From the NCBI GenBank assembly GCA_001819435.1, contig MHMT01000003.1:5797-69796 (forward strand): a DNA stretch of 64,000 nucleotides. Direction: 5' to 3'. The notes below the pieces were generated by a model. The model was not told the origin of the DNA, did no database searches, and saw only the letters and a list, made by a program, of their open reading frames with translations. Of this stretch, positions 18,086 through 43,378 are shown one piece after another. The position numbers and the translations under genes are program-made. This stretch comes from Candidatus Portnoybacteria bacterium RBG_13_40_8. GTDB taxonomy: Bacteria > Patescibacteriota > Minisyncoccia > RBG-13-40-8-A. Positions within the stretch are counted from its first letter, which is position 1. Every line of letters begins with the position of its first letter.

Positions 18086-19021
18086 TTAATTCTCTTTATT
18101 TTTTAATAATACTTTTCTTAACTTATTGGCTAAGAAAATCTCAGTTTTTGCCATGGATTCATATGTTGCCCCTCCAATATGGGGAGTTAATATAAAATTT
18201 CTATTTTTTGTTAAGTGAATGAATTTGTTTAAATTATTTTTACCATTTTCGTCAGTAATAACATCCAAAGCAATGCCTTTAAAAAAGTTATTTTTAATTT
18301 TTTTAATAAGATAATCTTCGTCTAATAATTCGTTTCTTGCTGTATTAATAAAGTATTTATCTTGCAATAAGTCTATGTAATTTCTATTTAAAAATTTAGA
18401 ACCCTCATAAGAAGCACATAATAATACAATTTCACATTTTTTTATTAATTTTTTTAAATTGGTTATTTTTTTTGCACCATAACACGGCTTTATATTGAGC
18501 CTTACATCATAGAAGAACACATTGGCGCCGAATTCCGAGAAGTATTTTGCCAAAATTTTACCAATCCTGCCAAAGCCAATTATGCCAATATTTTTATTAT
18601 AAATTTCATGTCCTTTAAACTTATCTCTATTCCATTCTTTATTGTTTTTATTTAAAAAAGCATCTTTATAATTTCTTAAGAGCGACAAAACCAGGCCAAA
18701 AGCATGTTCGGGAGTTGCTCTTATGTTAGATAAAAATTTATTTTCATCTTTTAAAGAAATTAATAAAATATTTCTTTTTTTTATTTCTTCCAAATCTAAG
18801 TGATTAAGTCCAGTAGTAGGGGTGCAAATAAATTTCAATTTTTTAGCAGATTCTAATACCTTTTTGCCAATAAAATAATTAAGTCTAATAAAAATAATTT
18901 CTTTATTTCTGATAAAAGACTTCAAATTTTTACCATCAAAAAATTCAACACCACCAATTTTATTGAGAGAGTTAAGAGCTTTTTGTGAAAAATCCCCCTT
19001 TTCCAAAATTCCTATTCGCAT
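18086..19021 (-). CDS. D-isomer-specific 2-hydroxyacid dehydrogenase family, NAD-binding
   Basis: GIIGFGRIGKILAKYF dinucleotide-binding motif and the overall 2-HADH architecture. Confidence 0.65.
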   Translation of the reverse strand: MRIGILEKGDFSQKALNSLNKIGGVEFFDGKNLKSFIRNKEIIFIRLNYFIGKKVLESAKKLKFICTPTTGLNHLDLEEIKKRNILLISLKDENKFLSNIRATPEHAFGLVLSLLRNYKDAFLNKNNKEWNRDKFKGHEIYNKNIGIIGFGRIGKILAKYFSEFGANVFFYDVRLNIKPCYGAKKITNLKKLIKKCEIVLLCASYEGSKFLNRNYIDLLQDKYFINTARNELLDEDYLIKKIKNNFFKGIALDVITDENGKNNLNKFIHLTKNRNFILTPHIGGATYESMAKTEIFLANKLRKVLLKNKEN

Positions 19022-19722
19022 AGAGTTTTACGTAGTGTTTTTAAGTCTTTTTGTGTATCTATGTCTAGGGCTCTGTTTTTAGATATTTCGAAAAGTAATG
19101 GAGTATTAGAAATAATCCGATGGCATTTTTTAATATGCTTGACAGATGAAATATATATTGTGCCATCTCGAACAAAAATATTTTTTAACTCTTGTCTCCT
19201 TATCCCTTTATTGTGATTAAAAGATAACGGAATACCAAAGTTTTTTTCCTTATGGTAAAGCTCCGTTTCATCAATTTCGTCTTCACAATAAGCAGAAATT
19301 AACGATTCATTTTTATTTTTAAGATAAAGCTTTATCGCTTCTTTTATGTCTTTATATTTTCTTAGGGGTGAAGTCGGTTGCAGTATAACAACACAGTCAT
19401 AAAAAATTCCTTTTTTCTCGAAATGATTTATTGCGTGTACAACAAAATCAATCGGCTTCGCCTTATCTCCGGAAATCTTTTTGGGTCTTAAAAACGGCAC
19501 ATGCGCCCCTAGTCTTTGAGCAATATCTGCAATTTTTCGGCTATCGGTTGAGACAATAACCTCATCCACTAATCTATCTTTCTTAATTCTTAGAGCTGGA
19601 CCTATCGTGTAAGCAACTAAAGGCTTATTGCAAACATTAGTAATATTTTTATTTTTTATTCCTTTTGAACCACCTCGAGCGGGGATAATAACTAAAATTT
19701 TTTTGTTTTTATACATTATCAT
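19012..19722 (-). CDS. acylneuraminate cytidylyltransferase (CMP-nonulosonate synthetase family)
   Basis: ILVIIPARGGSKGIKNKNI is the N-terminal signature of CMP-NeuAc/CMP-Kdo synthetases. Confidence 0.75.
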   Translation of the reverse strand: MIMYKNKKILVIIPARGGSKGIKNKNITNVCNKPLVAYTIGPALRIKKDRLVDEVIVSTDSRKIADIAQRLGAHVPFLRPKKISGDKAKPIDFVVHAINHFEKKGIFYDCVVILQPTSPLRKYKDIKEAIKLYLKNKNESLISAYCEDEIDETELYHKEKNFGIPLSFNHNKGIRRQELKNIFVRDGTIYISSVKHIKKCHRIISNTPLLFEISKNRALDIDTQKDLKTLRKTLCE

Positions 19723-20881
19723 CGTTAAATTTTTTCTGAATATAGAGATTTATATTACTAAGAATATCTACGATCTTTTTACTAGAATTTGGTTTATAAT
19801 AGATATCTGATGACGGATATGGTCCGTGCGAAATTTGTTTAAGAATGGCTTTTTTGATTTTTCTTCTGTCATAGTCAACATCAATAACATTTTCAGCTCT
19901 CATTCTGCCATCTTGTCTAGTGCCAATATTAACTACCGGGATTTTCAGATAAGAACATTCTTTTATACCGGCCGATGAATTACCCACCAAACAAGAAGTT
20001 TTTTTCAATAAACTAATAAATTCTTCAGGTAGCAAAAACTTAATAAAGAGAACACTTCTGTCAAGATTATGTTTCTCTCTGTAACGTCGTAACATTCCAG
20101 AAATTCTATCTGTTCCAGCATCAACGTTTGGCCAGAACCAGATCGTAGGAATATTCAGTTCTGATATTGATTTTATTGTTTCAATAATATTTTTTTCGTT
20201 CATCTCTATCTCGGTGGTAACGGGATGCTGTGTTACAATCAAAAAATTCTTATTAATATCAACCCTAGCTCCCAATCCCATATTATTAATTATTCTATTG
20301 GTAATTTTAAAATTATTTTTAGCAGCAATTTCCAACCCAGGGCAGCCAACATTAAAAACATAATCAGGTCTTTCTCCCATTTGAATAATTCTTTTCTTGG
20401 AATCTTCATTGGTAGCAAAATGAATATGAGCTAATTTCGTAATAGCATGCCTGACGCTTTCATCAATATTGCCGCTTACATCCCCGCCTTCAATGTGGGC
20501 TATTGGAATATTTAGGTAGGCAGCTGCTATGGCAGCAGAAAGCACTTCGTATCTATCGGCTCTTAATACAACAATGTCCGGCTTTAATTTCTCAAAAGTT
20601 GAGGTAAATTCAATTACACCCAAGCCCGCTGTTTTTGCCATGGATACATTGTTTCCTCCTTCTAGGGTTATAGAAACGACGGCACTAACATCCAATCCAT
20701 CGTGCTTTAACCATTTATCAACTTCACCGTATTTGCTAAGTATGGCAGAGCCGCCAATAACGATCTGTAAATCCACATCATCCCTTTTTTTCAATTTTAC
20801 TAAAATCAGTTTACTCCTGGCATAATGAATTGTGCTCGTTATAACAAAACAAATTTTTCTTTTTTTGGTTTGATTCATCAT
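19709..20881 (-). CDS. UDP-N-acetylglucosamine 2-epimerase (hydrolysing, NeuC-type)
   Basis: HIEGGD and ITKLAHIHF motifs. Paralog of the gene at 34414. Confidence 0.75.
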   Translation of the reverse strand: MMNQTKKRKICFVITSTIHYARSKLILVKLKKRDDVDLQIVIGGSAILSKYGEVDKWLKHDGLDVSAVVSITLEGGNNVSMAKTAGLGVIEFTSTFEKLKPDIVVLRADRYEVLSAAIAAAYLNIPIAHIEGGDVSGNIDESVRHAITKLAHIHFATNEDSKKRIIQMGERPDYVFNVGCPGLEIAAKNNFKITNRIINNMGLGARVDINKNFLIVTQHPVTTEIEMNEKNIIETIKSISELNIPTIWFWPNVDAGTDRISGMLRRYREKHNLDRSVLFIKFLLPEEFISLLKKTSCLVGNSSAGIKECSYLKIPVVNIGTRQDGRMRAENVIDVDYDRRKIKKAILKQISHGPYPSSDIYYKPNSSKKIVDILSNINLYIQKKFNDDNV

Positions 20882-20882
20882 A

Positions 20883-21995
20883 TTATTCTAAATATTCAAG
20901 CTTAATTGGATTATATTTATTTAAATCTTTTTTGGTTTTTTTACCAACGACGTCCCCGAACTTATCAGAGGGTAAACCATTAATATACTTTTTTGGTCGC
21001 ATGGCAAAAATCATCTCTTTAGTTATAACTGTACCAGCTGGTATGTTGGCTCCGGCTACCAATGACTTATTAAAATATGGCCTGAATTTATTATTGGCGC
21101 CTTCAAGTTCTTTTTCTTTTATTCCATAAAAAGTACTCTCGTCCATATTTTTATATTCATTATTGCGGATAGCGCTTACCATTTTTTTCATTTCTTCTGG
21201 TGTGATAGAAGCCTTATGATCGGGTCCCCATAAATCCCTTGAAAAAGAAAAATGCTTTTCAATAACCTTGGCGCCAAGTTTCACTGCCGACAACGAAGCA
21301 TTGGGACCCAAAGAATGATCGGAAAATCCAACAACTATATCCGGATATTTTTCTTTCAAATATTCTATGGTAGATAAATTAAAATCTTCGGCTGGGCAAG
21401 GATACTGACTGACGCAATATAAAACCGCAAGTGGCACTCCTTTGGACTGGATGTATTTTATAATTCTATCCAATTCGTCCAAGCTGACCATTCCGCTTGA
21501 AATAATAATCGGTTTACCTGTTTCAATCATATAATCAAGCATCACATAATCCTGTACATCGCCAGAGCCGACTTTCCAAAAAGGAACCTCAAGTGCATCC
21601 AATGTTACAGCTGCCTTACGACTCATGGGCGTAGAAAAGAAAATAATTCCTTTTTTGTCGCAATATTGTTTTAATGGTTTCCAAAATTCTTCAAAGGGGG
21701 TAGCATTGGTGTTTCTTTTAACCCAGGAATACCTATCGCTCTCCTTAAAATGTGGCGAGACGATATTAATGTTCATTTGTTCATCTTCAAGATTATGAGT
21801 TTGAAATTTTACCGCATCAGCCCCTGATTCCTTAGCTAATTTTATTAACTTTTTGGCGTTTTCTAAATATTCTTCTGTTTTTTTTTCTTCTTCTGACTGA
21901 ATAAAGTTCTTGCCGATTTCGGCAATAATAAAAACTCCTTTTTGAATTTTTCCCCAAATATATTCTTCGTTAAAATTATTTTTATTTTTATGCAT
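20883..21995 (-). CDS. NeuB-family nonulosonate synthase homolog (divergent)
   Basis: NeuB-fold motifs (AEIGKNF..., ADAVKFQTH, GFSDHS) plus a C-terminal SAF-like domain. The canonical N-H-N motif is replaced. Confidence 0.6.
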   Translation of the reverse strand: MHKNKNNFNEEYIWGKIQKGVFIIAEIGKNFIQSEEEKKTEEYLENAKKLIKLAKESGADAVKFQTHNLEDEQMNINIVSPHFKESDRYSWVKRNTNATPFEEFWKPLKQYCDKKGIIFFSTPMSRKAAVTLDALEVPFWKVGSGDVQDYVMLDYMIETGKPIIISSGMVSLDELDRIIKYIQSKGVPLAVLYCVSQYPCPAEDFNLSTIEYLKEKYPDIVVGFSDHSLGPNASLSAVKLGAKVIEKHFSFSRDLWGPDHKASITPEEMKKMVSAIRNNEYKNMDESTFYGIKEKELEGANNKFRPYFNKSLVAGANIPAGTVITKEMIFAMRPKKYINGLPSDKFGDVVGKKTKKDLNKYNPIKLEYLE

Positions 21996-22051
21996 AACTT
22001 TCTTTCGGTTGCCCTTGAAGACCAGTCGAAATTTTATTACTGGGTATAATT

Positions 22052-23488
22052 TTAATTATTATTTTTTTCTATTTCTAATAAAATTCCTTGAAGGATATTA
22101 TTTAGGCTTTCTTGTTTGGTGAGTTTAGAGGTTTTTTCAAGATCGGGACAGATATATCCATGGATGGTTGCGTTGTCAAAACATTTTAAATAATTGATAA
22201 TTTTTTGCTGGTTTACAACAAAACCACTTGCGATTTTTTTAAAAGCATTTTTGCATGATTCAACGTCTTTAACTTTAAATATTTCCGAGCAGTCCCTATA
22301 CCAGGGATAACCAAAAACCAAGCTTGGTTTCGACCTTAAAATTGCCTCCCATGCAGCTGTTCCGGTAACTGTAGCAACTGCCTGAGATTTATTAATTAAG
22401 GTATACGTATTAATTTCAACCGGGATTACTTGAACATTTTTTAATTCGGCTATTTTTTTGTAATAACCTTGATACCGGTAGTAGAAAAACCTTATTCCTC
22501 GACGAATCCATTGGATTGGATGCTCTTTTACATAAATAATCCAACCCGGAGGGAGCGAGGCGGATAAGGTTTCAATCATTAAAACTTGGTCAACAAATAC
22601 GTCTCCTTGAGGAGAGGTGGTGCATTCGGGTTGGACTTGAAGCGCTACATAAATAAATTTTTTATTAAAATCAGGTTCAATTTGAATGCTTTTATATTCT
22701 TTTTTAAGGTTTTGTTCAAGTCTGCTGTTTATGCTTTGCATTATTAGTTTTAAAAGAGATTCTTCTTTAAGGTATTTTTTCAGTCGTTTTAATCTGTGCA
22801 CCAATGAATTAGATTTAGAATATCGATTCCTTATTATGTCCATGGATACTATTGTCCCGTTTGGCGCAGAGTTACGGTTAGGGTCTGTTTGTAATTTGTA
22901 GTATTCTTGTAGGTCATTACTTAAATCTTTTAAGGAAAAATTTTTATCCTGATTTTTTTTAAGCTCTTTATGTAAATTATCGCTTCCTTGCCAAAAATCA
23001 GTATAAATTAATGTTCTGTCAGTGGTTTCTGCGTCTTCAAGCACAATTGTTTTGATATTTAATAAGTGTCCTAATTCATAAACAAGATAACTACTAATAT
23101 CGTGCGGAATGGTTTGATTAATAATTATATCCGGTTTGTATTTTTTGAGGACACCGTACCAGTATTGCAGCATATTATAATATAAATGTTTGCGTTCATC
23201 TGTTTGCAGCTTGCCAGTTTTAGCCCTGTTCATCATTGTTAAAATTAAGGATTCGACTTTGTGTAATCGCTCAATCAAATCCTTTCCCGGTGGTAGAAAT
23301 CCAGACATATCAATGCCCTTGGCTGGTATTCCAGATAGGGCATCCAAAAGATTATGGAAAATAGTTTCCGAGGGTTTATATTTTTCTCCCCTGTTAGCCA
23401 GCCAGTAAACAATCTTATTTGATTGTCCCTTTAATGTTGAAAGGATTATTTCTGGATCTGAGCTGTTCCATGTTAAAAATATTTTCAT
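22052..23488 (-). CDS. hypothetical protein, polysaccharide-biosynthesis context
   Basis: No confident family assignment. Possibly a TagF/capsule-synthesis-like transferase. Confidence 0.25.
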   Translation of the reverse strand: MKIFLTWNSSDPEIILSTLKGQSNKIVYWLANRGEKYKPSETIFHNLLDALSGIPAKGIDMSGFLPPGKDLIERLHKVESLILTMMNRAKTGKLQTDERKHLYYNMLQYWYGVLKKYKPDIIINQTIPHDISSYLVYELGHLLNIKTIVLEDAETTDRTLIYTDFWQGSDNLHKELKKNQDKNFSLKDLSNDLQEYYKLQTDPNRNSAPNGTIVSMDIIRNRYSKSNSLVHRLKRLKKYLKEESLLKLIMQSINSRLEQNLKKEYKSIQIEPDFNKKFIYVALQVQPECTTSPQGDVFVDQVLMIETLSASLPPGWIIYVKEHPIQWIRRGIRFFYYRYQGYYKKIAELKNVQVIPVEINTYTLINKSQAVATVTGTAAWEAILRSKPSLVFGYPWYRDCSEIFKVKDVESCKNAFKKIASGFVVNQQKIINYLKCFDNATIHGYICPDLEKTSKLTKQESLNNILQGILLEIEKNNN

Positions 23489-23500
23489 ATACGTTCTTAT

Positions 23501-25330
23501 TTATTTTCTAATATTATAAATCTTATAAAAATAAGATTTTTTATCTTTTAATAATTCACCTGGTATACCTTGTTCAATAATTTTACCTTTTTCTAATATT
23601 AACAACTTATCGCAATTAATTACAGTGGATAATCTATGGGCAATCGCTAAAACTGTAATTTTACCCTTAAGATTTTCGATTATTTTCTGGATTCGTATTT
23701 CTGATTCGTTATCAAGAGCGCTGGTTGCTTCATCTAATATTAGAAATTCTGGATTTCTGGCCAGAATTCTGGCTATAACGATTCTTTGTCGCTGGCCGGC
23801 CGACAAGAATATTCCTCTTTCTCCAATAATAGTAGAAAATTTCTTTGGTAGGGTTTGTATAAAATCATATATATTAGCCTTTTTTGCTGATTGTTCTATT
23901 TCTTCTTTATTAATAGTATCATCATAAAACCTAATATTATTAGTAATAGTATCATTTATCAAAAATATGTCTTGGGGAATATAACCAATATTTTTTCTCC
24001 ATTGTTTTATATCAATTTTTGAAATATTCTTTCCATTCATTAAAATTTCACCCTTACTAAGAGGGAATAGCCGTAAAATTAAATCAACAATAGTAGTTTT
24101 CCCGACCCCAGAGGGGCCGATTAAACCGACCATTTCTCCTTTTTTAATATTAAAACTTAGATTGTTTAAAATTATTGCACTTCTATTATAGGAGAAATTT
24201 ACATTTTTAAGTTCTAAATCATTATCAAACTTGAAATGACCTGAGCCCTTGATTTTTTCTCTATTTTTGTCAACCTCTTTTTCAAAGATTAATACATCCT
24301 CCAAATGGGGGACTAATTCATTTGCCGTGTGCAGTCCTTGTTGCAGATCTTGAATATATTGAAAGATTTTATAGATTAGATATGTTATTGGAATAAAGGC
24401 GGCAAAACTGAAATTCGGAGATTTATATGCGAATAAGAATACAATGCAAACAAAAATTAAACTAGTTGGTTGAAAAAAAAGGTGGGCGCAGTTTTTTAAT
24501 AAGAAAATTTTTACTTTAATTTTTTTTAGTTTGTTAAAATATTTTTTTCCAATTTCAATAATTTTATCGTTAACAAACATCGTTTTTACTGTTTTTATTC
24601 CTATAATATTTTCATTAACAAAATGAGCAACCTGCTTATTTGTGGTGGCTACTTTTTGAGCAGCTATTCTTGTTCTATACATCAGGGGTTTAAAAGAAAA
24701 GAACAGAATACTCCCCATGACAAGAGCAAATAGTGTGATACGGGATGAAATATTGATTGCTACTGTTGTATAAATTATTAGACCCGTTAATGTCATTACG
24801 GCCGCGCTAATGGTATTTAAAAGGCTCGTACTATTTGCTATATCCACTTTTAAAATAGTCTCTAAATAGCCCAATTTTTGTTTTATTAGATAGGACCAAT
24901 TAGCGTTTATGGTTTTGCTGAACAAATTATTTCTGGTTTGTTCTTCATAATTTGCGCTAATTTTAATTCTAATATAGTTGCAAAAAACTAAAGCGATGGC
25001 TTTGAAAACAAATAATAAAACAATAAAGACAAGTAAATATTTTAAACTGAAATCAATATTAAAATACAAAAAAGCTTTTTCAATGGTTTGAGATATTATA
25101 TCAGCCTCGCCAAGCCCTTCTTCTGTGGCAAGAGAAATTACGGGAATTGCAGCATTAATTCCAATGCCTTCTAATGTACCAGTTACAAATCCTAATATTA
25201 TTAAAAGGAAAATTTGTAACTTGTATCTACCAAAAGCTTGTTTTGATAATTTTGTTATTGTTGTTAATCTATTTTTTGACATAATGTCTCGCACCCCTGA
25301 AATTAATTTTTTCTTTAAAGTATAAATCAT
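23501..25330 (-). CDS. ABC transporter, fused permease-ATPase (MsbA/PglK-like exporter; candidate lipid-linked glycan flippase)
   Basis: Six-TM N-terminal half; Walker A GPSGVGKTT, signature LSAGQRQRIVIARIL, Walker B ILDEATSALD. The true start is probably internal (MSKNRL) to avoid overlap. Confidence 0.8.
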   Translation of the reverse strand: MIYTLKKKLISGVRDIMSKNRLTTITKLSKQAFGRYKLQIFLLIILGFVTGTLEGIGINAAIPVISLATEEGLGEADIISQTIEKAFLYFNIDFSLKYLLVFIVLLFVFKAIALVFCNYIRIKISANYEEQTRNNLFSKTINANWSYLIKQKLGYLETILKVDIANSTSLLNTISAAVMTLTGLIIYTTVAINISSRITLFALVMGSILFFSFKPLMYRTRIAAQKVATTNKQVAHFVNENIIGIKTVKTMFVNDKIIEIGKKYFNKLKKIKVKIFLLKNCAHLFFQPTSLIFVCIVFLFAYKSPNFSFAAFIPITYLIYKIFQYIQDLQQGLHTANELVPHLEDVLIFEKEVDKNREKIKGSGHFKFDNDLELKNVNFSYNRSAIILNNLSFNIKKGEMVGLIGPSGVGKTTIVDLILRLFPLSKGEILMNGKNISKIDIKQWRKNIGYIPQDIFLINDTITNNIRFYDDTINKEEIEQSAKKANIYDFIQTLPKKFSTIIGERGIFLSAGQRQRIVIARILARNPEFLILDEATSALDNESEIRIQKIIENLKGKITVLAIAHRLSTVINCDKLLILEKGKIIEQGIPGELLKDKKSYFYKIYNIRK

Positions 25331-26693: not shown

Positions 26694-26732
26694 AATTTAA
26701 TTAGATTACCGTTACTATATTAATATTGATGA

Positions 26733-27896: not shown

Positions 27897-27906
27897 GAAC
27901 GGTTCT

Positions 27907-29034: not shown

Positions 29035-29035
29035 A

Positions 29036-30382
29036 TTATTCTATGGTTGGAATTAGTTCTAGAATTTCTTTAATAGACAGACAAAACTTATCTGCTTCAT
29101 GGGCTCTATTGTGTTTTAATATTAATTTTGCTGTTTTTACCATAGCAGGATAAGCGCTCCTTAACAGCTGATTTGCATATATTACAATTCTGACTCCTGC
29201 TTTGATTAATTCTTTTTCCGTTATTTGGTTGTATGTTGAAGGCACAACCACAAGAGGAACTTTATATTTAAATTTCTTATATTCTTTGCAAAATTCGAGT
29301 ATTTCCTTCGGGTCTTTTTCTTTACTATGTATCATTATGCCGTCAGCCCCTGCATTTATGTAGGCTTTTGCTCGTTTAAGGGCATCTTTTAGCCCTGCTT
29401 TTAAAATCAAGCTCTCAATTCTAGCTATAATCATAAAATCATCTGTCACTTGAGCTCTTTTACCCGCAGAAATTTTATTACAAAAACCCTTTATAGTATC
29501 TTGGGCTTGTTTAACGCCTGTTCCAAAAAGAGAATTTCTTTTAGCGCCGATTTTATCTTCTATAATAACGGCGGAAACACCAAGCCTTTCAAGAGATTTA
29601 ACCGTAAACATAAAATGCTCAGGCAGTCCTCCGCTGTCTGCGTCAACAATCATTGGCTTGGTTGTTACCTCTAATATTTGTTCAATTGTTTGGATTCTGG
29701 ATGTAATGTCTACTGCGGCTATATCTGGCTTGCCTTTTGATATTGAATCAGTTAAACTGCTTTCCCACATACCATCGAATTCACGAACTTTTCCGTTTTT
29801 ATTGATCTTTGTTTTTTCAACTATGAGTCCGGTTAGTCCATTATGAACTTCCATAATTCTCACTAATGGCTTAAGCTCCAATAACCTCCTAAGCATTTTT
29901 AATCTGTAAGCAGGAGTAACCCCTACTGCAACTACAGAACTAATAAGTTGTGTTGATGATATTCCTGGAACAAATTTGCGTTCAACTAATTTACCATGCC
30001 ATTCTTTAAGCGCTTGAATAACTCTTTTTCTTGTTTCTCGTTGAATACCTGTTTTCCAATCATCTCCGTGAACAACATAATCTGGCTTGATTTTTCTCAA
30101 ATTCGGAACATAATCTAGGGTTGTCTGGGCTACTATATTCTTTACTCCTGCAATATTCTCCACTATTTTTTTTCTTTGCTCATATGTCAAAAACGGCACC
30201 CTTTTATAACTAGCTATGGCTTTATCTGTTAGTAAGCCAACCACTACATCTCCTAATTCTTTTGCTTTTATTATGGTATTTATATGCTCCGTATGAATAA
30301 GGTCAGCGCACATTCCTATATATACTATCTTTGGTTTTTTTTGTTTATGTTTCATATTACTTATTTTTTTACTTATTTTCAA
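29036..30382 (-). CDS. pepM: bifunctional cytidylyltransferase / phosphoenolpyruvate phosphomutase (Fom1-like)
   Basis: N-terminal domain: [11 protein letters not shown] is a cytidylyltransferase H-x-x-H-type motif. C-terminal domain: [16 protein letters not shown] is the PEP-mutase EDK(x5)NS signature. Confidence 0.8.
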
Positions 30383-30942
30383 AAGATTTCTTTATGAATC
30401 ATGTCCTTTAGTCTTCTTTTTGGAACATGTAAAATGCCTTTTTTATCAAGCCAGTATTTTATATCTTTTTTAAATTTATCCTCAACAGATTTCTGTTTGG
30501 GATAGCCGAGAGCTATTGCCAATTCAATCATGTAATCTTTTGGAATATTTAAATATTTGATCAACTTGTCTCTGTTTAGCGAACCAATTATACAGCTTGC
30601 TATTCCTTTCTCTAGTGCAGTTAATAATATGTTTTCTATCGCTAAACCCACATCATATTTAGCATTAGTACTTATTTTAGTGTTAGAGATTATTAAAATA
30701 TAAGCAGTGGGCCTTTCTCCTGTTTTTGGAGCTCCATTTTTCAAATAACCTGCCCAATTGGTGCATTCAAAAACTCGGTCAAGATTCTTGGTTATCAAAA
30801 TATATTCTAAGGGTTGAAGATTGGCAGAGCTTGGTGCAAGTCTGGCCGTATTTATGCATGAAAGAATGTCAGATTTTTTAATTTCTTTTTGAGAAAATTT
30901 TCTTATCGTCCTTCTTTTTAGAATTAATTTATATGTATTCAT
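30379..30942 (-). CDS. nitroreductase-family flavoprotein
   Basis: N-terminal RRTIRKF...APSSANLQP matches the nitroreductase fold signature. Confidence 0.6.
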
Positions 30943-30943
30943 T

Positions 30944-31663
30944 TTAATCTGTGGTTAATTTTTCTTTTATACCGCTTCCCAGGGATTTTTTTAATTTTTT
31001 TAATGTTTTTACAAGATTATCTACATTATCTATAATTATTGCATGTTCGTCATCGGGAAATTTTTCTTGTGAATTATCTTTTACGTAAAAAAAGATATCC
31101 GATGGCTCAAATGCTACCGACAGATAGAGTATATTGTGTTCTGAACAATGCAATCCAAAAGCTATTTTTTTGTTTGTAAGTCTTCTGAGTCTGTCAATGG
31201 CTTTTAGATTGGTATCTTCTATTTTTCGTGATAACTGAGTATGAATAAATTTTATATTTTTTAATTTTTTACTCATTTTAATTATTTCTTTTTCACTTGA
31301 GATGCCGGTAGATACAAAAATAGGCTTATTTGTTTTCTGTAGTTTGCTTAGAAGGGCATCATCTAAAATAGAAGTACTCAAAGATTTCCAGAAATCAGCC
31401 CCGGCCGAATTAAGAAAAGAAATCATTTTTTTATCCGTAATCGCAAAGCCTATTAACTTGTTGTTTTTGTGAACAAAATCTATCGCATTTTTATAAAAAT
31501 TTTTGCTAAGTGGCCCTCCCCATTTTTTTATTTTGTCATAATACGTAGGTTCTACAACTTGAAAAGTAATCGCATCAATATCTGTACTAATCAATTTCTT
31601 AAGCATTTTGAATGCCCTCGTTTCACTACCTTTATAATTTTTACCTATTTCCGAAATAAACAT
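30944..31663 (-). CDS. short NeuB-like (TIM-barrel only) protein lacking the catalytic motif and SAF domain
   Basis: ISEIGKNYKGS...AITFQ aligns to the NeuB N-terminus, but the N-H-N motif is absent and the protein is only 239 aa. Confidence 0.4.
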   Translation of the reverse strand: MFISEIGKNYKGSETRAFKMLKKLISTDIDAITFQVVEPTYYDKIKKWGGPLSKNFYKNAIDFVHKNNKLIGFAITDKKMISFLNSAGADFWKSLSTSILDDALLSKLQKTNKPIFVSTGISSEKEIIKMSKKLKNIKFIHTQLSRKIEDTNLKAIDRLRRLTNKKIAFGLHCSEHNILYLSVAFEPSDIFFYVKDNSQEKFPDDEHAIIIDNVDNLVKTLKKLKKSLGSGIKEKLTTD

Positions 31664-31690
31664 TTTATTTTTCTAATATATTTTAAGTTT

Positions 31691-32812
31691 TTACTGAACT
31701 TCTTTTTTTAATCTCCAAACCCCATTTCTTTTTTCCAGAATTTCTTTATTGGCAAACTTGTCTGCTATTGCCCAAAACTTTTCTTCTGGATACTCAATAA
31801 AGTCAAGAAAATCTTTTAACATCTTTCTGTCTAGTTTATAATCTTCTTCATTCACCAATTTCACTGCTTCCTCTCTGGTTAGTCTGCCTTCTCTTATCAA
31901 GACGCTGCTGGTTGCCGTGGTGTAGCAAAAACCGAACTTGAGAAACTTAAACCAGGCATCAGTAAGGTATCCTACTGTGTCAATCTGATTATATTGTTCT
32001 ATGTAGCCTTCTCTTTTCCATTCACCAGTATCATCGAGCGTCTTAAACCCCTTACTTCTGGCAAACTCCATGTGTTTATATTGGCTCCACGGAACAAAAT
32101 AACTTAAATAAATTGGGTCTAATTTGGCTCTTTTTATTTCTTCTGCCGAAGGATAGATACAAGGATTAAAGTCTTTCATAGAGAGAGATGGATCTTCTTT
32201 TAGCCAAACACTCCAATCTATTGGCTTAATAACATCATTGTTGATCTGTTCAAGGGCGCTATATGTCTCTTTGTCTCCTAACGTTCCGCCGTATTCATAG
32301 CTAGTATTCTCGCCATAAACAACTAAAGGTATGCCGAGTTTAATAGCCATTTGAATAGGATAAGCATAAATAGCAAGATCAAAATACCATCCTGGTTTAC
32401 CAATTTTCTCTAACCCCATTCGAAACATTTTCTTACATACCTTTGGGTTTAACGACATTATATGGGCATCTACTCCAAACTTTTGTAAAAGATTACTCCA
32501 GTTTTGCTTGCCGGTCTTGGTCCAACTAAAATTATCAATATTTATCAAAAGCGGATTCATTCCTAACTTCTCTTTTAAGATATAGGTTTGATAATAGCTA
32601 TCTTTTCCAGCGCTAACAGTATTAATACAATCATAATAATTACCATTTGAGCCACGGTATTTATCTGCCAATTTTTCCAATTCTTGCCATCGTTTATTCC
32701 AGTCAGTTTTGGCCTTGGTTTCATGATGTCGGCACGGATAACAAACTCCTTCATCATCGAATTTTATGCCAGGCCTAGTGTCTGGCATGACGCATTTTTT
32801 ACAATATCTCAT
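31691..32812 (-). CDS. N-acetyl-sugar amidotransferase (PP-loop ATPase, WbuX/PseA-like)
   Basis: N-terminal CxxC pairs, SAGKDS PP-loop, and similarity to the family that adds acetamidino/amide groups to nonulosonic or uronic sugars. Confidence 0.6.
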   Translation of the reverse strand: MRYCKKCVMPDTRPGIKFDDEGVCYPCRHHETKAKTDWNKRWQELEKLADKYRGSNGNYYDCINTVSAGKDSYYQTYILKEKLGMNPLLINIDNFSWTKTGKQNWSNLLQKFGVDAHIMSLNPKVCKKMFRMGLEKIGKPGWYFDLAIYAYPIQMAIKLGIPLVVYGENTSYEYGGTLGDKETYSALEQINNDVIKPIDWSVWLKEDPSLSMKDFNPCIYPSAEEIKRAKLDPIYLSYFVPWSQYKHMEFARSKGFKTLDDTGEWKREGYIEQYNQIDTVGYLTDAWFKFLKFGFCYTTATSSVLIREGRLTREEAVKLVNEEDYKLDRKMLKDFLDFIEYPEEKFWAIADKFANKEILEKRNGVWRLKKEVQ

Positions 32813-32821
32813 ATTTTTATT

Positions 32822-34399
32822 TTAATTGTTAATTTTTTTATTATATATATTTTCTAAAGCCCTTATATATTTCTTTGTTTTTCCGTTATCGTTCCAAACG
32901 CCATCGTGAGCAAATACACATTCTTCATGTATTTTATATAATTCTTCTGTTAATTTTTTTCCGATCTCGTCATCCTTTTCCGATCGTTCTATATATTTAT
33001 AAAAAAGACGGGGCATTTTTATATACAATACAAATCGTTCCCGAAGAGCTATAAGCTCTTTTTGGGGAATATCGGGGAAAGTCAAGGCCGGTCTGTCATT
33101 TTGGAATACTGCATCGGAGTTTTCGTCAAAGAAGCCATTTTTTACGGCAATCTCTCTTAGCTCAGTTTTTTCTAAAGGAAAGAAGAATCCCGCATTCGGA
33201 TATCGAACCTCTGCCTTTCTATTCAATTCGATAGTTTCCATAACGGTTTTTCTATTTTCAAATGGAACACCCAGCATATTGAAAGCAGAAGTGCGAATGC
33301 CGGCGTCATTAAATAATTTAGTTGCCTCTATGATTTCTTCTTCGGTTTCAATCCTTTTGAACATTTCCTTTCTTAATTTATGATTTCCTGTTTCAATGCC
33401 TAGGCTTACACTGACACAGTTCATTTTTTTAAGAAGTTCTACTTTTTCTCGGGTTACATTTCGGGCATTAGCCATAATAACAAACGGAACTCCGACTTCT
33501 TTTTTATATTTATCAGCCAATTCATTGAAATAATCCAGTGATTTGAGACAAAAATCTTCATCGTGAAATTTAAAGAATTCCAAATCCCATTTATCAACCA
33601 GATATTTTAATTCCTTAATAATTCTATCTATGTTGTAATATCTTAAGAAAGGACCGGCTCCTGGCCCATAAAGTTTACGGTAAGCGGCATTAATGCAATA
33701 TGTGCATTGATTTGGACAGCCCCAGTATATCATGTGGTCGCCGCCTCTATATATTTTGCCGTCAAATGGTTTAAGGAAATGACGTTTGTCAAAAATTGAC
33801 CAATCAAAAAATGGCAGAGAATCCAGGTTCTGAAAATATGGTCGCAAGGGATTTTTTTTAATCCCCCCATTATCATCCTTATATGCGATATTATTAATTG
33901 TCTTAGGATTACAATTTTTAGCAATACATTCAACAAACTCTGGCATAAATTCTATTCCCTCGCCAACGCAAGCAAAGTCTATATGATTACAATCAAGAAT
34001 CTTTTCGGGTACCATTGTTGCTGCTTTGCCTCCCCATATAACTATGGTGTGGTTATTCCATTCCTTGACAATCCTTGAAATCTCGAAACCAATGTATATC
34101 TCATCTGACAAAGCAGAAATTCCGATTATATCGGGATTAAATTCGTTTAATTTTTTCAACAATTCTTCTTTTAAATTAACTTTTTTCTTGGCCACATCGT
34201 ATTTACTGAAATCAACATCTTTGAAAATTTTTATCTTACTACGGACTTGAGTATTGTTTTGAAAGTTAAAATCTATAAAAGTGGTATCGAATAAATCAAC
34301 CTCGTGTCCTTTGTTTTTTAAGATACCGAATAATAAAGATAGGCTCATTGGTTTAAAGCCAAATTGATCTTTATTGGGCCATACAAATAATATTTTCAT
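32822..34399 (-). CDS. B12-binding-domain radical SAM enzyme
   Basis: WGCPNQCTYC motif and GIETGN motif. Paralog of the enzyme at 7388. Confidence 0.75.
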   Translation of the reverse strand: MKILFVWPNKDQFGFKPMSLSLLFGILKNKGHEVDLFDTTFIDFNFQNNTQVRSKIKIFKDVDFSKYDVAKKKVNLKEELLKKLNEFNPDIIGISALSDEIYIGFEISRIVKEWNNHTIVIWGGKAATMVPEKILDCNHIDFACVGEGIEFMPEFVECIAKNCNPKTINNIAYKDDNGGIKKNPLRPYFQNLDSLPFFDWSIFDKRHFLKPFDGKIYRGGDHMIYWGCPNQCTYCINAAYRKLYGPGAGPFLRYYNIDRIIKELKYLVDKWDLEFFKFHDEDFCLKSLDYFNELADKYKKEVGVPFVIMANARNVTREKVELLKKMNCVSVSLGIETGNHKLRKEMFKRIETEEEIIEATKLFNDAGIRTSAFNMLGVPFENRKTVMETIELNRKAEVRYPNAGFFFPLEKTELREIAVKNGFFDENSDAVFQNDRPALTFPDIPQKELIALRERFVLYIKMPRLFYKYIERSEKDDEIGKKLTEELYKIHEECVFAHDGVWNDNGKTKKYIRALENIYNKKINN

Positions 34400-34413
34400 A
34401 ATATCCTCATCTT

Positions 34414-35571
34414 TTAAATAGTAATTTTCTTCTGGATAATGTTATCTAATTCTATAGTAGACAATATATTAACGATTTTCTTGCTAGTATTTCCTTTTCC
34501 ATATATATATTCGGGCGGATACTTGCCATGTTGAATAGATTTTAAGATAGCTTTTTTGATTTCGGCTTTATCATAACCAACATTAATAACATTTTTTCCT
34601 CTTTCTCTTCCATTTTGTCTGGTTCCAATATTTATAGTCGGAGTACCAAAATAACAAGATTCCCGAATACCGCTGCTAGAGTTACCAACCATACAAGTAG
34701 CCTTGGCAAGTAATGAAATGTAATCTTCGAATACGATATTCTTGCCCATGGTAACATGCCCGAGTTTCTTGGCAATATCAAATAATCTTATTTCTCTGAC
34801 CATGTCTTTTGAACCAGCATCCACATTTGGGAATAGCATAATTGTTTTAATTTTTAACTCAGAAATTGCCTTGAGGGTTTCTCGGATTTGTTGCCGGCAA
34901 TATTGATATTCGGTTGTTACCGGATGTTGAACAACTATTAAAAACGGCTTATTTTTGTCTAAATTATATTTTCTATAAATTTCGCTCCTGGGTTTATTTT
35001 TCTTTGATAAAATAATATCTACAGCAGAACAGCCAACGTTAAAGACCATATCGGGTCTTTCTCCCATTTTTATTATTCTTTCAGCGCTTTTGGCTGTAGC
35101 CGGAAAATGAATATGAGCAAGTTTTGTTATCGCATGACGAATACTTTCATCTATTGAGCCAGTAGTTTCGCCTCCTTCCATATGAGCTATTGGTATATTC
35201 ATAAAAGCAGCAGATACCACCGTTCCTAAAATATCAAAACGGTCGCCTGATACAAAAACCATATCTGGTTTATATAAGCTCAAAAGCGTTGGAATTTCTA
35301 ATGCGCATAAACCAACTGACTTAGCCATTGAAATCAAATCTTCTCCCGCTGCTATGGTTCTTGCAACAGCATTTATTTTAAAGCCGTCGTCTCTTATTGC
35401 ATTGATTGTTTTGCCAAAATCATCAAGAAGATGTGATGCCGTTACAATCAATATCAATTTTAGTTTGGGATTTTTTTTGATTGCCCTCATTACGGGTTTA
35501 AGCTTGCTGTATTCAGACCGATTTCCAGTAACAACGCAAATTTTTCTTATTTTAGCTTTAGATTTTCCCAT
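34414..35571 (-). CDS. neuC: UDP-N-acetylglucosamine 2-epimerase (hydrolysing)
   Basis: HMEGGE and ITKLAHIHF motifs. Confidence 0.75.
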   Translation of the reverse strand: MGKSKAKIRKICVVTGNRSEYSKLKPVMRAIKKNPKLKLILIVTASHLLDDFGKTINAIRDDGFKINAVARTIAAGEDLISMAKSVGLCALEIPTLLSLYKPDMVFVSGDRFDILGTVVSAAFMNIPIAHMEGGETTGSIDESIRHAITKLAHIHFPATAKSAERIIKMGERPDMVFNVGCSAVDIILSKKNKPRSEIYRKYNLDKNKPFLIVVQHPVTTEYQYCRQQIRETLKAISELKIKTIMLFPNVDAGSKDMVREIRLFDIAKKLGHVTMGKNIVFEDYISLLAKATCMVGNSSSGIRESCYFGTPTINIGTRQNGRERGKNVINVGYDKAEIKKAILKSIQHGKYPPEYIYGKGNTSKKIVNILSTIELDNIIQKKITI

Positions 35572-36581
35572 TTTATTAATTGATTGGCCTTTATGCTTTT
35601 TTTGGCTCTCAGGCCAACTATTTTATTTAAATATTTTGCCGGGATGCCTGTCCCGGGGCGTTTAACCCAGACCATATTTTTCTTTATCGTCGCTCCGTTT
35701 GGTATATCAACAAGAGAGACCACGCTTTCCCGAGCCATTTTTTTAACTGGCAACTCATCCGAAGTTATTTTTTTGGTAGAGCCCAGGGCTTTTTCTACGG
35801 CCCTCACTCCTTGAACCAATTCCTTTAACTCTTTTGGCTCAATAGATGCTTTTTGGTCGGGGCCTGGCCATTTTCTGCTTATGGTAAAGTGTTTCTCTAA
35901 AACACAAGCGCCGAGAGCAATTGCTGTCAGGGCAGTATAGATGCCTATCGAATGGTCGGATAAACCAACGGGTATTTTAAGTTCTTTCTTCAGTCTTTCT
36001 ATGACTCTTAGATTCAAATCCTCATACTTTGCCGGATATGAAGATGTGCAGTGAAGAATTATAAATTTATTATTAAATCTCTTAACAAAATTGACCGTTT
36101 CCCGGACTTCCCTAAAAGTGCTCATGCCTGTTGAAATAATCATAGGTTTTCCTTTTCGGACTATATGTTCCAATAATGGAAGGTTTGTCATTTCTCCAGA
36201 CCCAACTTTATACGCCTTAACTCCTATTTTTTCTAATAAATCAGCTGCCTCTCTGCTAAATGGTGTTGATAAAAATAAAATTCCTTTCTTCTCAGCGTAT
36301 TTTTTAAGATTAATATGGTCTTTTTTAGACAGTTCAACCTTTTTAAGAAGATCGAAAAGGGAGCTTTTTACATATTCGGCAGTAAAACCATCCTTGAGCA
36401 TCTCTTTTTCTGGCAGATGGGTTTGAAATTTTATAGCGTCGGCTCCGGCTTCGGCTGCCTTTTGAATCAAAAGCATTGCTTTTTCGATATTACCATTGTG
36501 ATTTATTCCAGCTTCAGCAATGATAAAGCAGGGTTGATTTTCCCCAATTAATTTTTCCCCAATTTTAATTTTATTTATCAT
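35547..36581 (-). CDS. neuB: N-acetylneuraminate (nonulosonate) synthase
   Basis: Canonical IIAEAGINHNGN, ADAIKFQTH and GLSDHS motifs, plus a C-terminal SAF domain. Confidence 0.8.
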   Translation of the reverse strand: MINKIKIGEKLIGENQPCFIIAEAGINHNGNIEKAMLLIQKAAEAGADAIKFQTHLPEKEMLKDGFTAEYVKSSLFDLLKKVELSKKDHINLKKYAEKKGILFLSTPFSREAADLLEKIGVKAYKVGSGEMTNLPLLEHIVRKGKPMIISTGMSTFREVRETVNFVKRFNNKFIILHCTSSYPAKYEDLNLRVIERLKKELKIPVGLSDHSIGIYTALTAIALGACVLEKHFTISRKWPGPDQKASIEPKELKELVQGVRAVEKALGSTKKITSDELPVKKMARESVVSLVDIPNGATIKKNMVWVKRPGTGIPAKYLNKIVGLRAKKSIKANQLIKWENLKLK

Positions 36582-37272
36582 ATTTTTTTATTTGTTTAGT
36601 TAGCCAAAAATCAAATTCTGTATCAATTTCAAGGGAATTTTTTTCTGGCATAATATATAATCCAATTTTCCCATTTAGTATGTTGTGTTTTTTTATAAAG
36701 TTTTCATACTTTGTGATATATATTGCTCCATTTTCTTTATATTCAGGTTTTCTATCTTGTCTTCGAGCTTGTTTTCGAGTTCTTTTTTTAAAATCGTAGT
36801 TTATGCAAATCGCTGTGCTCCGATTAATTTTCCATATAAATGCATGTGAAGGACAGACGCTTAATAAGGAATCGTATTTTTCTTCTAAAAATTTATTTAT
36901 CGCTTCATCTATATGATGAGCAGCGCGAAGAGGAGAGGTGGGTTGAAGCAAAACAATAATATTTGGTTTATAATTTCCGTGTTTTTTCAAATAACTAATA
37001 ATATGTTCTAATACCGATTGCATTGGAGTAGTGTCCCCTGATAACTTTTTTGGTCTTTTTACCACCTCGGCTTTATATCTTTTTGAAATTTCCTTTATTT
37101 CTTTATCTTCCGTAGAAACAATTACTCTGTCTAATAATTTGCTTTTTAATGCCGCTTCTATGGTGTAGGCAATCAATGGTTTGTTTGTTAAAAGCCTAAT
37201 ATTTTTCTTGGGAATTCCCTTAGATCCTCCCCGAGCTGGAATTATTGCTAAAATTTTTTTATTTTTATACAT
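36571..37272 (-). CDS. neuA: CMP-nonulosonate synthetase (acylneuraminate cytidylyltransferase)
   Basis: ILAIIPARGGSKGIPKKNI motif. Confidence 0.8.
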   Translation of the reverse strand: MYKNKKILAIIPARGGSKGIPKKNIRLLTNKPLIAYTIEAALKSKLLDRVIVSTEDKEIKEISKRYKAEVVKRPKKLSGDTTPMQSVLEHIISYLKKHGNYKPNIIVLLQPTSPLRAAHHIDEAINKFLEEKYDSLLSVCPSHAFIWKINRSTAICINYDFKKRTRKQARRQDRKPEYKENGAIYITKYENFIKKHNILNGKIGLYIMPEKNSLEIDTEFDFWLTKQIKKYDK

Positions 37273-38267: not shown

Positions 38268-38516
38268 TTACCACTTTTTGATTTTGTTTTTTATATTCTT
38301 TTTCAGTTTTTGATAAACTGCCACTGCCTTCCTTTCAACTTTAGGAGAGACCAGTCTCAGGATTTCTTTCCCTAAAATCCTGTATTGCCCCCCGACTTTA
38401 TTTGCCTTGATAATGCCATTCTTAAGAAGGCGTTTTATGGTGCTGTCGCTCACTTTCAAAATTTCTTTAGTTTCGTTGGTGGTATATATTGAGTTTGGAT
38501 TTACTTCTTTTTCCAT
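38268..38516 (-). CDS. small helix-turn-helix DNA-binding protein (excisionase/MerR-type HTH_17)
   Basis: ILKVSDSTIKRLLKNGIIKANKVGGQYRI resembles the Xis/MerR N-terminal HTH. 82 aa. Confidence 0.5.
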   Translation of the reverse strand: MEKEVNPNSIYTTNETKEILKVSDSTIKRLLKNGIIKANKVGGQYRILGKEILRLVSPKVERKAVAVYQKLKKNIKNKIKKW

Positions 38517-43328: not shown

Positions 43329-43378
43329 AAGAAATAGAATTATTTGACAATAAATTTAAAAGGGTTTATTAGATAGTT

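Follow-up and report, generated by a model that had tools for sequence, protein, structure and literature searches.

Two nonulosonate gene sets in one Candidatus Portnoybacteria operon, one with a distinct NeuB and a NeuA-coupled 2-hydroxyacid dehydrogenase

Why should one operon of an uncultured bacterium encode the synthesis of activated nonulosonic acids twice? The question is raised by a 64-kb stretch of contig MHMT01000003.1 (positions 5,797 to 69,796; hereafter, the window) from Ca. Portnoybacteria RBG_13_40_8, a member of the Parcubacteria, which belong to the candidate phyla radiation (CPR). The CPR bacteria, or Patescibacteria, are thought to be metabolically minimal episymbionts whose cell surfaces mediate host attachment, and the present locus represents a heavy investment in sialic-acid-like sugars: two lines for cytidine monophosphate (CMP)-activated nonulosonates, an acetamidino-forming enzyme, a predicted CMP-phosphonate line, and six B12-binding radical S-adenosylmethionine (radical-SAM) genes within 64 kb. 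The operon consists of 24 minus-strand genes, all co-directional, that cover 26.7 kb (40042->13336), and the gene overlaps or short gaps (at most 113 bp) make a single transcription unit likely. A first-pass annotation, made from the sequence alone, had proposed two separate nonulosonic-acid gene sets; the open reading frames (ORFs), coordinates, and protein families of the seven genes concerned bore this out, and both NeuB/NeuC/NeuA sets were complete and lay within the one operon. NeuB1 and NeuB2 also lay together on a contig from an independent assembly (Logan SRR4030043_18, 40.4 kb), and the arrangement from set 2 through the phosphoenolpyruvate (PEP) mutase gene recurred in a second sample, indicating that the locus is neither a chimera nor an assembly artefact. 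We read it, with a probability a little above one half (about 0.55), as one operon for two CMP-nonulosonates, in which set 1 is distinguished by its NeuB and by a tailoring dehydrogenase coupled to NeuA.

Set 2 comprised NeuA2 (36571..37272; PF02348, 2e-31), NeuB2 (35547..36581; PF03102, 1.7e-89), and NeuC2 (34414..35571), and set 1 comprised NeuB1 (20883..21995; PF03102, 2.3e-69), NeuC1 (19709..20881), NeuA1 (19012..19722; PF02348, 1.8e-22), and a D-2-hydroxyacid dehydrogenase (18086..19021; PF02826, 1.3e-33, and PF00389), all on the minus strand, as are the other operon genes given below. The gene content first described for set 1, including the insertions in NeuB1, was confirmed. Both NeuC proteins exceeded the cut-off (236 bits) of the TIGR03568 model for hydrolysing UDP-HexNAc 2-epimerases, with 381 bits for NeuC1 and 422 bits for NeuC2, and scored 64 and 106 bits with the wecB model. 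The CTP_transf_3 domain (PF02348) was present in both CMP-nonulosonate synthetases, for which the PseF model (cut-off 206) returned 149 bits (NeuA1) and 158 bits (NeuA2). Both synthases combined the PF03102 triosephosphate isomerase (TIM) barrel with an SAF domain (PF08666); with the TIGR03569 model (cut-off 399.65), NeuB2 reached 396.3 bits, about 3 short, and NeuB1 reached 261 bits. The corresponding proteins of the two sets were 36% (NeuB), 46% (NeuC), and 41% (NeuA) identical. By these family assignments, the operon encodes two complete and divergent CMP-nonulosonate lines, each with the same three enzyme families as the N-acetylneuraminic acid (Neu5Ac) pathway of Neisseria meningitidis (SiaA/SiaC/SiaB; 1XUU/1XUZ). 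In each line, NeuC would convert a UDP-HexNAc to the free 2-acetamido aldose, NeuB would condense this aldose with PEP to a 5-acylamino-3,5-dideoxy-nonulosonate, and NeuA would activate the product as a CMP-sugar.

The residues of the two synthases were compared by alignment to the sequence of N. meningitidis NeuB (1XUU; residues 5-319 verified). The catalytic residues of this enzyme are Glu25, Glu134, and Glu234, PEP is bound by Lys53, Lys129, Ser132, Ser154, and Ser213, and N-acetylmannosamine (ManNAc) is bound by Gln55, Tyr186, Asp247, Asn74 (at the C6-OH), and Arg314 (at the N-acetyl group) (PMC11339185, PMC8208679); the metal ligands are His215 and His236 (PMC11339185). NeuB2, which matched 1XUU with 247 bits and reads AEAGINHNGN in agreement with the INHNGN motif and the NeuC-NeuB-NeuA composition first described for set 2, retained all of the catalytic, metal, and PEP residues and was near-canonical, departing at N74Y and F288M. 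In NeuB1, the same region reads AEIGKNFIQSEEEKK, with insertions that include a 9-residue acidic insert after GKNF, and the changes I28K, H30F, N74F, F112M, E134D, N184S, and F288Y were found; E25, E234, H215, H236, K53, K129, S132, S154, S213, Q55, Y186, D247, and R314 were retained. Of the features of a strict Neu5Ac synthase, Asn74 and a score above the TIGR03569 cut-off were thus absent from both proteins, and Arg314 was present in both.

These comparisons altered one part of the first-pass annotation, in which the GKNF sequence of NeuB1 had been taken as the loss of an N-H-N metal/substrate motif. The GINHxG segment is not a metal motif, and the conservation of His215 and His236, together with the intact PEP and N-acetyl ligands, led us to reject a metal-site loss. 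The TIM barrel and SAF domain, metal histidines, PEP ligands, and Arg314 of the meningococcal enzyme are all kept here; unlike in that enzyme, the pocket of NeuB1 is rebuilt in a manner fixed throughout its clade (K28, F30 with the insert, F74, M112, D134, and Y288). Identical active-site and pocket residues, the pattern that would have marked the two synthases as simply redundant, were not found, and the difference in sugar-pocket residues speaks against simple redundancy; the rebuilt aldose pocket suggests that NeuB1 should accept a different aldose or stereoisomer. The earlier proposal that two pathways imply two different acids therefore gains from the differing pockets and the divergence of the lines, although the hydroxyacyl derivative that had been offered with it is only one reading and not the best supported one.

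To place NeuB1 among its relatives, its 120 best database matches (62-79% identical) were inspected. K28, F74, M112, D134, and R314 were present in all 120, F30 in 119, and Y288 in 116, and the named members belonged to the Pace-, Kaiser-, Lloyd-, and Portnoybacteria or to unclassified Patescibacteria. A gammaproteobacterial metagenome-assembled genome (MAG; L005) and a contig from sediment (L016) carried the signature as well. Judged by these residues, NeuB1 is a member of a large, conserved, and apparently undescribed clade rather than a one-off, and a sequence signature for this clade is now defined. In related Patescibacteria loci (L002, L004, L006, L007, and L011), the order NeuB1-NeuC1-NeuA-dehydrogenase was kept; NeuC1 was always found 3' of the GKNF NeuB, a second NeuB set recurred in several loci (L002, L007, L009, and L011), and Wzy_C-tetratricopeptide repeat (TPR) and SecA genes flanked the loci. 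The related loci look like a conserved but variable surface-glycan island.

The dehydrogenase gene overlaps NeuA1 by 10 nt. Its product has the two-domain fold, the GxGxxG and Asp NAD site, and the Arg-Glu-His triad of the D-isomer-specific 2-hydroxyacid dehydrogenases, and G146/G149/G151, D172, R229, E258, and H281 were invariant in 25 homologues and in both dehydrogenase subfamilies. These features, and a length of about 300 aa without regulatory domains, are shared with the type III phosphoglycerate dehydrogenases (PGDHs) and glyoxylate/hydroxypyruvate reductases (Pyrococcus horikoshii 1WWK). Unlike the SerA-type PGDHs, the protein occurs in a NeuA/NeuB/NeuC context, not in one of serine biosynthesis, and it scored 146 bits with the PGDH (SerA) model, whose cut-off is 454. 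Proteins of Aliarcobacter butzleri, Thermincola, many metagenomes, and a Promethearchaeota MAG were 55-73% identical to it, and the dehydrogenases of other CPR cassettes 32-37%.

A link between the dehydrogenase and the pathway had been proposed, and it was substantiated by gene neighbourhoods. A metagenome scan with a profile of the window dehydrogenase yielded 80 loci, 61 of them with enough upstream sequence; a single-protein scan of genome contigs yielded 7 loci only, and tblastn against 72,556 plasmids gave no match at E<=1e-40. In 55 of these 61 the gene directly upstream was NeuA, in 53 cases overlapping or within 30 bp, and the loci outside these 55 include fusions and cases with one inserted gene. 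One protein (P0180; 538 aa) is a NeuA::2-hydroxyacid dehydrogenase fusion, encoded downstream of a GKNF NeuB, a NeuC, and a methyltransferase. The order NeuB-NeuC-methyltransferase-NeuA-dehydrogenase, followed by a Capsule_synth or ATP-binding cassette (ABC) gene, was seen in A. butzleri (L355) and Thermincola. Where tailoring genes were inserted, they stood between NeuC and NeuA (a methyltransferase, an AsnB-type amidotransferase, or WbuX with HisH/HisF-like genes), and the NeuA/dehydrogenase junction was uninterrupted save for one 329-aa ORF in the near-identical loci L045 and L046. A housekeeping SerA identity was rejected in view of this linkage and the fusions.

NeuA1 itself was 50-52% identical to the NeuA of Aliarcobacter and Thermincola and 33-38% identical to that of other CPR cassettes, and by these values its divergence tracks that of the dehydrogenase and not that of NeuB. 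The NeuA-dehydrogenase pair combined with at least three NeuB types, suggesting that the dehydrogenase works with NeuA, independent of the type of aldose pocket. Taken together, gene order and identities mark the dehydrogenase as a dedicated NeuA partner within a module that spans phyla (Aliarcobacter, Thermincola, and CPR). The occurrence of this module in the cultured A. butzleri L355 makes its chemistry directly testable. Apart from the mention of a NeuB with a PGDH domain in Leptospira santarosai (PMC4758666), the searchable literature assigned no role in nonulosonate synthesis to a 2-hydroxyacid or phosphoglycerate dehydrogenase, and it contained nothing relevant on nonulosonates in Patescibacteria.

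In the pathway that we propose, set 2 would follow a route near that of Neu5Ac, with a product probably re-tailored by the WbuX enzyme (acetamidino) and a B12 radical-SAM enzyme. In set 1, the dehydrogenase would serve, together with NeuA, as an NAD-dependent tailoring oxidoreductase on the nonulosonate or CMP-nonulosonate; oxidation, reduction, or epimerisation at or around CMP activation would give a keto or epimeric derivative. The sugars would finally be attached by KpsC-like transferases to a glycan also carrying hydroxyethyl(propyl)phosphonate from a Fom1-like module. Of this scheme, the sequences show the identities of the genes, the conserved active sites, the signature of the NeuB1 clade, and the link between NeuA and the dehydrogenase; the substrates, the site of oxidoreduction, and the roles of the transferases are proposals. 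There is a precedent for redox tailoring at the CMP level, as a cytidylyltransferase and NAD(P) oxidoreductases epimerise CMP-legionaminic (Leg) or pseudaminic (Pse) acid at C8 (PMC13656337, PMC12053666): ElaB is a CTP-transferase, ElaA has a GFO fold and is proposed to oxidise CMP-Leg at C8, ElaC is NAD(P)H-dependent and is proposed to carry out the reduction, and the product of ElaABC is 8-epi-legionaminic acid (PMC13656337). As in ElaABC (Acinetobacter baumannii KL49 and Vibrio vulnificus) and EpaAB (Acinetobacter prophages), a CMP-nonulosonate synthetase is here adjacent or fused to an NAD(P) oxidoreductase, and the CTP_transf_3::reductase fusion EpaA has a counterpart in the P0180 fusion. 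The Ela and Epa enzymes act on 5,7-diamino-tetradeoxy sugars with demonstrated C8 epimerisation, whereas the activity of the present module is a proposal.

Several points weigh against this reading. The Ela/Epa oxidoreductases belong to the GFO/IDH/MocA, short-chain dehydrogenase/reductase (SDR), and aldo-keto reductase families and come as two redox enzymes, whereas a single D-2-hydroxyacid dehydrogenase is present here, and the proposed reaction is an inference by likeness to Ela/Epa. Enzymes with the 2-hydroxyacid dehydrogenase fold as a rule require a carboxylate beside the reacting carbon, and the C4, C7, and C8 hydroxyls of a nonulosonate have no adjacent carboxylate. Position 74 of NeuB sits in the beta2-alpha2 loop, where the alignment is uncertain, and Asn74 is gone from NeuB2 as well. 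The transferase assignments described below come from weak similarity, and genes of a Leg/Pse type could lie elsewhere, the survey having covered 64 kb of the genome.

One explanation, which corresponds to the hydroxyacyl idea of the first-pass annotation, takes the chemistry of the dehydrogenase fold at face value: the enzyme would make or oxidise glycerate, lactate, glycolate, or a phosphorylated form of these small D-2-hydroxyacids, and the acid would become a substituent of the glycan or nonulosonate, as known for N-glyceroyl and O-lactyl groups and glycerate phosphate. The closest relatives being type III PGDHs and glyoxylate/hydroxypyruvate reductases, the intact carboxylate-binding triad, the invariant PGDH-like W-x-R132 motif, whose Arg we take to be anion-binding, and the methyltransferase or AsnB-type amidotransferase genes that often adjoin the dehydrogenase are all in keeping with this. 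The minimal NeuB-NeuC-NeuA-dehydrogenase cassette, on the other hand, lacks a de-N-acetylase, an acyl-activating enzyme, and an acyltransferase, glycolysis already supplies 3-phosphoglycerate and glycerate, and a dehydrogenase fused to NeuA, and reportedly also to NeuB, suggests that the fused enzymes act one after the other on the sugar; we therefore regard a substituent-forming role as rather unlikely. A carboxylate at the far end of the sugar would also account for the use of a 2-hydroxyacid dehydrogenase. If UDP-GlcNAc were oxidised to the uronic acid UDP-GlcNAcA before NeuC and NeuB acted, a dicarboxylic "nonulosaric" acid would result, and its C8-OH/C9-COOH end would be the substrate. 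In non-CPR cassettes, a TviB-like UDP-GlcNAc 6-dehydrogenase (429-603 bits) stood directly upstream of NeuB in 8 of the 34 loci counted by script; locus maps, read by eye, placed one no more than about 8 kb away in roughly 30 of the 80 loci. Lys, His, and Arg residues occur in the beta1-alpha1 and beta2-alpha2 loops of NeuB. Many dehydrogenase loci nevertheless lack TviB, whereas NeuB, NeuC, and NeuA are always present; TviB is often paired with a TviC-like epimerase, suggesting a separate GalNAcA monomer; by our own reasoning, C5 of a D-hexuronate has the L-2-hydroxyacid configuration; and nonulosaric acid is absent from the searchable literature. The uronic route thus seems very improbable to us, and the TviB-like enzyme may supply a GlcNAcA or GalNAcA partner sugar or, less likely, a nonulosonate precursor.

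Other alternatives concern the sugars rather than the dehydrogenase. If both sets made CMP-Neu5Ac as dosage or regulatory duplicates, with the dehydrogenase as an unrelated neighbour such as SerA, then the closeness of both synthases to the N. meningitidis Neu5Ac synthase among solved structures, the single equivalog model passed by both NeuC proteins, and the lack of an added precursor-modifying dehydratase or aminotransferase would be readily understood. Yet the paralogues are only 36-46% identical, and the differences between their pockets are fixed across the clade. A separate NeuA belongs to each set, and several distant Parcubacteria likewise have dual sets. The coupling in 55 of 61 loci, with the fusions, rules out a chance neighbour. 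Such a duplication is improbable on these grounds. Another possibility, to which we give a small chance, is that set 1 or both sets form the tail of a Leg/Pse-type (5,7-diamino, 9-deoxy) or trideoxy (fusaminic-like) pathway with its dehydratase, aminotransferase, and acetyltransferase genes elsewhere in the genome. The replacement of Asn74, the C6-OH ligand, by Phe in NeuB1 and Tyr in NeuB2 is what 6-deoxy substrates would lead one to expect, WbuX-type amidotransferases are typical of Leg/Pse/Fus acetamidino sugars, some homologues are labelled legionaminate synthase by JGI, and Fusobacterium nucleatum, which has a 5-acetimidoylamino-3,5,9-trideoxy nonulosonate, provides a precedent. The small size of CPR genomes, a locus that otherwise looks self-contained, and the gene content of the window and of most related-locus flanks argue against it. 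The absence from the window of PseB/PseC/LegB-type dehydratases and aminotransferases, already remarked in the first-pass annotation, held: tblastn with two DegT proteins found no DegT aminotransferase in the 64 kb, and the window SDRs scored 54-185 bits against cut-offs of 408-475, with no 4,6-dehydratase model near its cut-off. Both SDRs carry SSSxVY...YxxxK (SSSACVY...YGWEK in the one upstream of set 2), presumably the epimerase-type motif, and not TDE, which we take to mark dehydratases. A 9-deoxy (fusaminic-like) product made by these SDRs is accordingly unsupported. In the related loci, flanks of about 17-21 kb mostly contained no DegT or dehydratase gene; DegT was seen in a few, downstream and apart from the cassette.

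Without an aminotransferase or a 4,6-dehydratase in the window, Neu-type backbones are the most likely, and Arg314 together with the NeuC equivalog scores indicates 2-acetamido substrates. The most economical reading is therefore of two backbones of the Neu type (5-acylamino-3,5-dideoxy), distinguished by stereochemistry and/or tailoring: one sugar would come from set 2 together with the upstream epimerase, WbuX, and the radical-SAM enzyme, and the other from set 1 together with its dehydrogenase and the probable methyltransferase. The locus is in this respect a variant of known nonulosonate biosynthesis, not a new kind of system, and it contains three conserved uncharacterised elements: the GKNF NeuB clade, the NeuA-coupled dehydrogenase, and a pair of a short NeuB-like protein and a reductase. 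Compared with the meningococcal pathway, set 1 is set apart by its dehydrogenase coupled to NeuA and by its CPR host. We would go further only tentatively, and with clearly less confidence than in the operon as a whole, in suggesting that the GKNF NeuB and the NeuA-coupled dehydrogenase make an undescribed nonulosonate, either a Neu-type sugar made keto or epimeric at the CMP level or a sugar built on an aldose other than ManNAc, that this sugar is widespread in Patescibacteria and also occurs in Campylobacterota, Firmicutes, and archaea, and that the short NeuB-like/reductase pair is a second, independent, and likewise undescribed tailoring system. If true, many Patescibacteria would bear such a sugar on their surfaces. 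The locus could also lengthen the list of sialic-acid mimics from bacteria and of the enzymes available for making them.

The short NeuB-like protein of the operon (30944..31663; 239 aa; PF03102, 7e-15) is a TIM barrel without SAF. Its family (about 240 aa) retains E25, Q55, K129, S132, S154, H215, and D247 and carries K53T, Y186L, S213G, E234F, and H236Y, so that the metal, catalytic, and PEP residues of a NeuB are not all present in the short copy (K53T, S213G, E234F, and H236Y). In every context examined, the gene was immediately followed by a reductase gene. The partner was a nitroreductase in the window (pair at 30379-31663), where the nitroreductase-fold flavoenzyme is encoded at 30379..30942 (PF00881, 8.8e-23), and in a Daviesbacteria genome where the pair stands alone (L098); an SDR took its place in a Leg-type cluster of marine origin and, after NeuB-SIS-NeuA, in an archaeon. 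Outside the window, the pair lay at L098 9001-10286, L099 9001-10563, and L100 9001-10376. The pair usually lies within nonulosonate clusters and is probably another nonulosonate-tailoring pair. A role of the short protein in the phosphonate pathway was considered and rejected, because at other loci it is accompanied in every case by a reductase but by no phosphonate genes, and most of these loci are nonulosonate clusters.

A phosphonate module (25269-30382, minus strand) lies between the two sets and upstream of a TagF-like transferase gene (14535-15830). It encodes a Fom1-like bifunctional cytidylyltransferase::PEP mutase (29036..30382; TIGR02320, 402 bits, cut-off 320), whose N-terminal domain matched the cytidylyltransferase (CyTase) domain of Fom1 (5X3D) with 193 bits, a phosphonopyruvate decarboxylase (27907..29034; TIGR03297, 472 bits, cut-off 312), and an iron-dependent alcohol dehydrogenase (Fe-ADH; 26733..27896; PF00465/PF25137), a probable phosphonoacetaldehyde reductase (FomC/PsrA-like) whose top NCBIfam match was Phn_Fe-ADH at 246 bits, under the cut-off. 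The adjacent B12-binding radical-SAM protein (25269..26693; PF04055 and PF02310), a candidate Fom3-like C- or P-methylase, gave weak matches to PhpK/Sden_1168 P-methyltransferases (about 101-103 bits) and matched no specific model. The presence of the PEP mutase/decarboxylase/Fe-ADH module is firm at the level of protein families; the module is predicted to make CMP-2-hydroxyethylphosphonate, possibly methylated by the adjacent radical-SAM enzyme. As in the fosfomycin pathway (Fom1-Fom2-FomC(-Fom3)), a CyTase::PEP mutase fusion, a phosphonopyruvate decarboxylase, an Fe-ADH, and a neighbouring B12 radical-SAM gene occur together; Pfam and NCBIfam scans of the window ORFs returned no HppE epoxidase and no FomD-like protein, neither of which was searched for specifically. 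Unlike in that pathway, the module sits in a glycan operon beside the TagF-like transferase, a setting from which we infer that the CMP-phosphonate is probably a donor for glycan decoration, not an antibiotic intermediate; the TagB/TagF-family phosphotransferase (14535..15830; PF04464, 6.9e-66) would then be a candidate transferase for the CMP-activated phosphonate. In two related Parcubacteria loci (L011 14020-21107 and L013 17586-21116), sulfotransferase genes occur with PAPS genes (ATP sulfurylase and adenylylsulfate (APS) kinase), where the window has its phosphonate module. This suggests that the sulfate and phosphonate genes provide alternative anionic decorations on the same glycan scaffold.

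Two proteins of the operon may transfer the nonulosonates. KpsC and KpsS are beta-Kdo (3-deoxy-D-manno-oct-2-ulosonate) transferases that use CMP-activated ulosonic acids. The 478-aa Capsule_synth protein (22052..23488; PF05159, 4e-11), which gave weak matches to KpsC structures (E about 1e-3) and whose family lies directly 3' of the dehydrogenase in many related loci, is a candidate CMP-ulosonate-dependent glycosyltransferase. A 515-aa protein (15773..17320; Capsule_synth E 0.061), a possible second KpsC-like transferase, had no significant Pfam or NCBIfam match and weakly resembles the KpsC-type CMP-ulosonate transferases, matching the 478-aa protein by BLASTP with E 0.007 over the HP-motif region; its homologues adjoin NeuA-dehydrogenase cassettes in L082, L091, L094, and L096. 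Two KpsC-like transferases would match two CMP-sugar donors. PF05159 in the 478-aa protein and the HP-motif region common to both proteins are shared with KpsC/KpsS (Capsule_synth, GT107); the resemblance is very distant, a nine-carbon sugar would serve as donor, and CPR cells, unlike KpsC/KpsS hosts, have neither an outer membrane nor a group 2 capsule system.

The operon starts with a Bac_transf initiating phosphoglycosyl transferase (38630..40042; PF02397, 3.6e-67), a small HTH_17 protein (excisionase/MerR-like; 38268-38516) that could be a regulator or a mobile-element remnant, and the epimerase-type SDR directly upstream of set 2 (37292..38257; PF01370, 8.5e-40), whose top NCBIfam match, GDP-fucose synthase, reached 129 bits, far under its cut-off. 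NeuA2-NeuB2-NeuC2 are followed by a B12-binding radical-SAM enzyme (32822..34399; PF04055 and PF02310; no equivalog reached), which by its domains is a candidate methylase tailoring the set 2 sugar, and by the WbuX-type N-acetyl sugar amidotransferase (N-acetyl to acetamidino; 31691..32812; TIGR03573, 338 bits, cut-off 203). The 239-aa NeuB-like protein, the nitroreductase, and the phosphonate genes in the order cytidylyltransferase::PEP mutase, decarboxylase, Fe-ADH, and radical-SAM form the middle part. The last part begins with an ABC exporter or flippase of fused transmembrane and nucleotide-binding domains (23501..25330; PF00664 and PF00005), homologues of which adjoin NeuB cassettes in L007, L013, L017, and L022, and continues with Capsule_synth, NeuB1-NeuC1-NeuA1-dehydrogenase, a probable SAM-dependent methyltransferase (17317..18075; sub-threshold Methyltransf_24, 22 bits), the 515-aa and TagF-like proteins, and a GT4 glycosyltransferase (13336..14538; PF00534, 3.9e-37). 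A 250-aa gene resembling that of the methyltransferase precedes NeuB1 in L013.

Further glycan-related genes flank the operon. A Wzy_C (O-antigen ligase/O-oligosaccharyltransferase-like)::TPR fusion is encoded divergently at 40078-42309 (+), and its homologues flank NeuB loci of other Parcubacteria and of Thermincola (L004, L006, L007, L009, and L017). The region 42318-44953 (+) contains a shortened nucleotide-sugar dehydrogenase (336 aa, without the C-terminal domain, 59% identical to an L006 homologue) and, 3' of it, a 524-aa fusion of a TviC-like 4-epimerase and a GNAT acetyltransferase. TviB-like genes were observed upstream of NeuB in non-CPR loci (L015 5018-6280; L019, L041, L045, and L095). 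An AsnB-type glutamine amidotransferase is encoded at 4783-6582 (+) among the upstream glycan genes; in the metagenome cassettes L026, L054, and L077, a member of this family separates NeuC from NeuA, which hints at amidation of a sugar carboxylate. The six B12-binding radical-SAM genes (2174-3595, 7388-8908, 9269-10651, 10661-12106, 25269-26693, and 32822-34399), two of them inside the operon, all scored below curated family cut-offs. The window from 50 to 64 kb contains housekeeping genes, and a TrwB/TraG-like coupling ATPase, which has a treble-clef zinc finger at its C terminus, is encoded at 56399-57988 (+), amid SecDF and tRNA synthetase genes.

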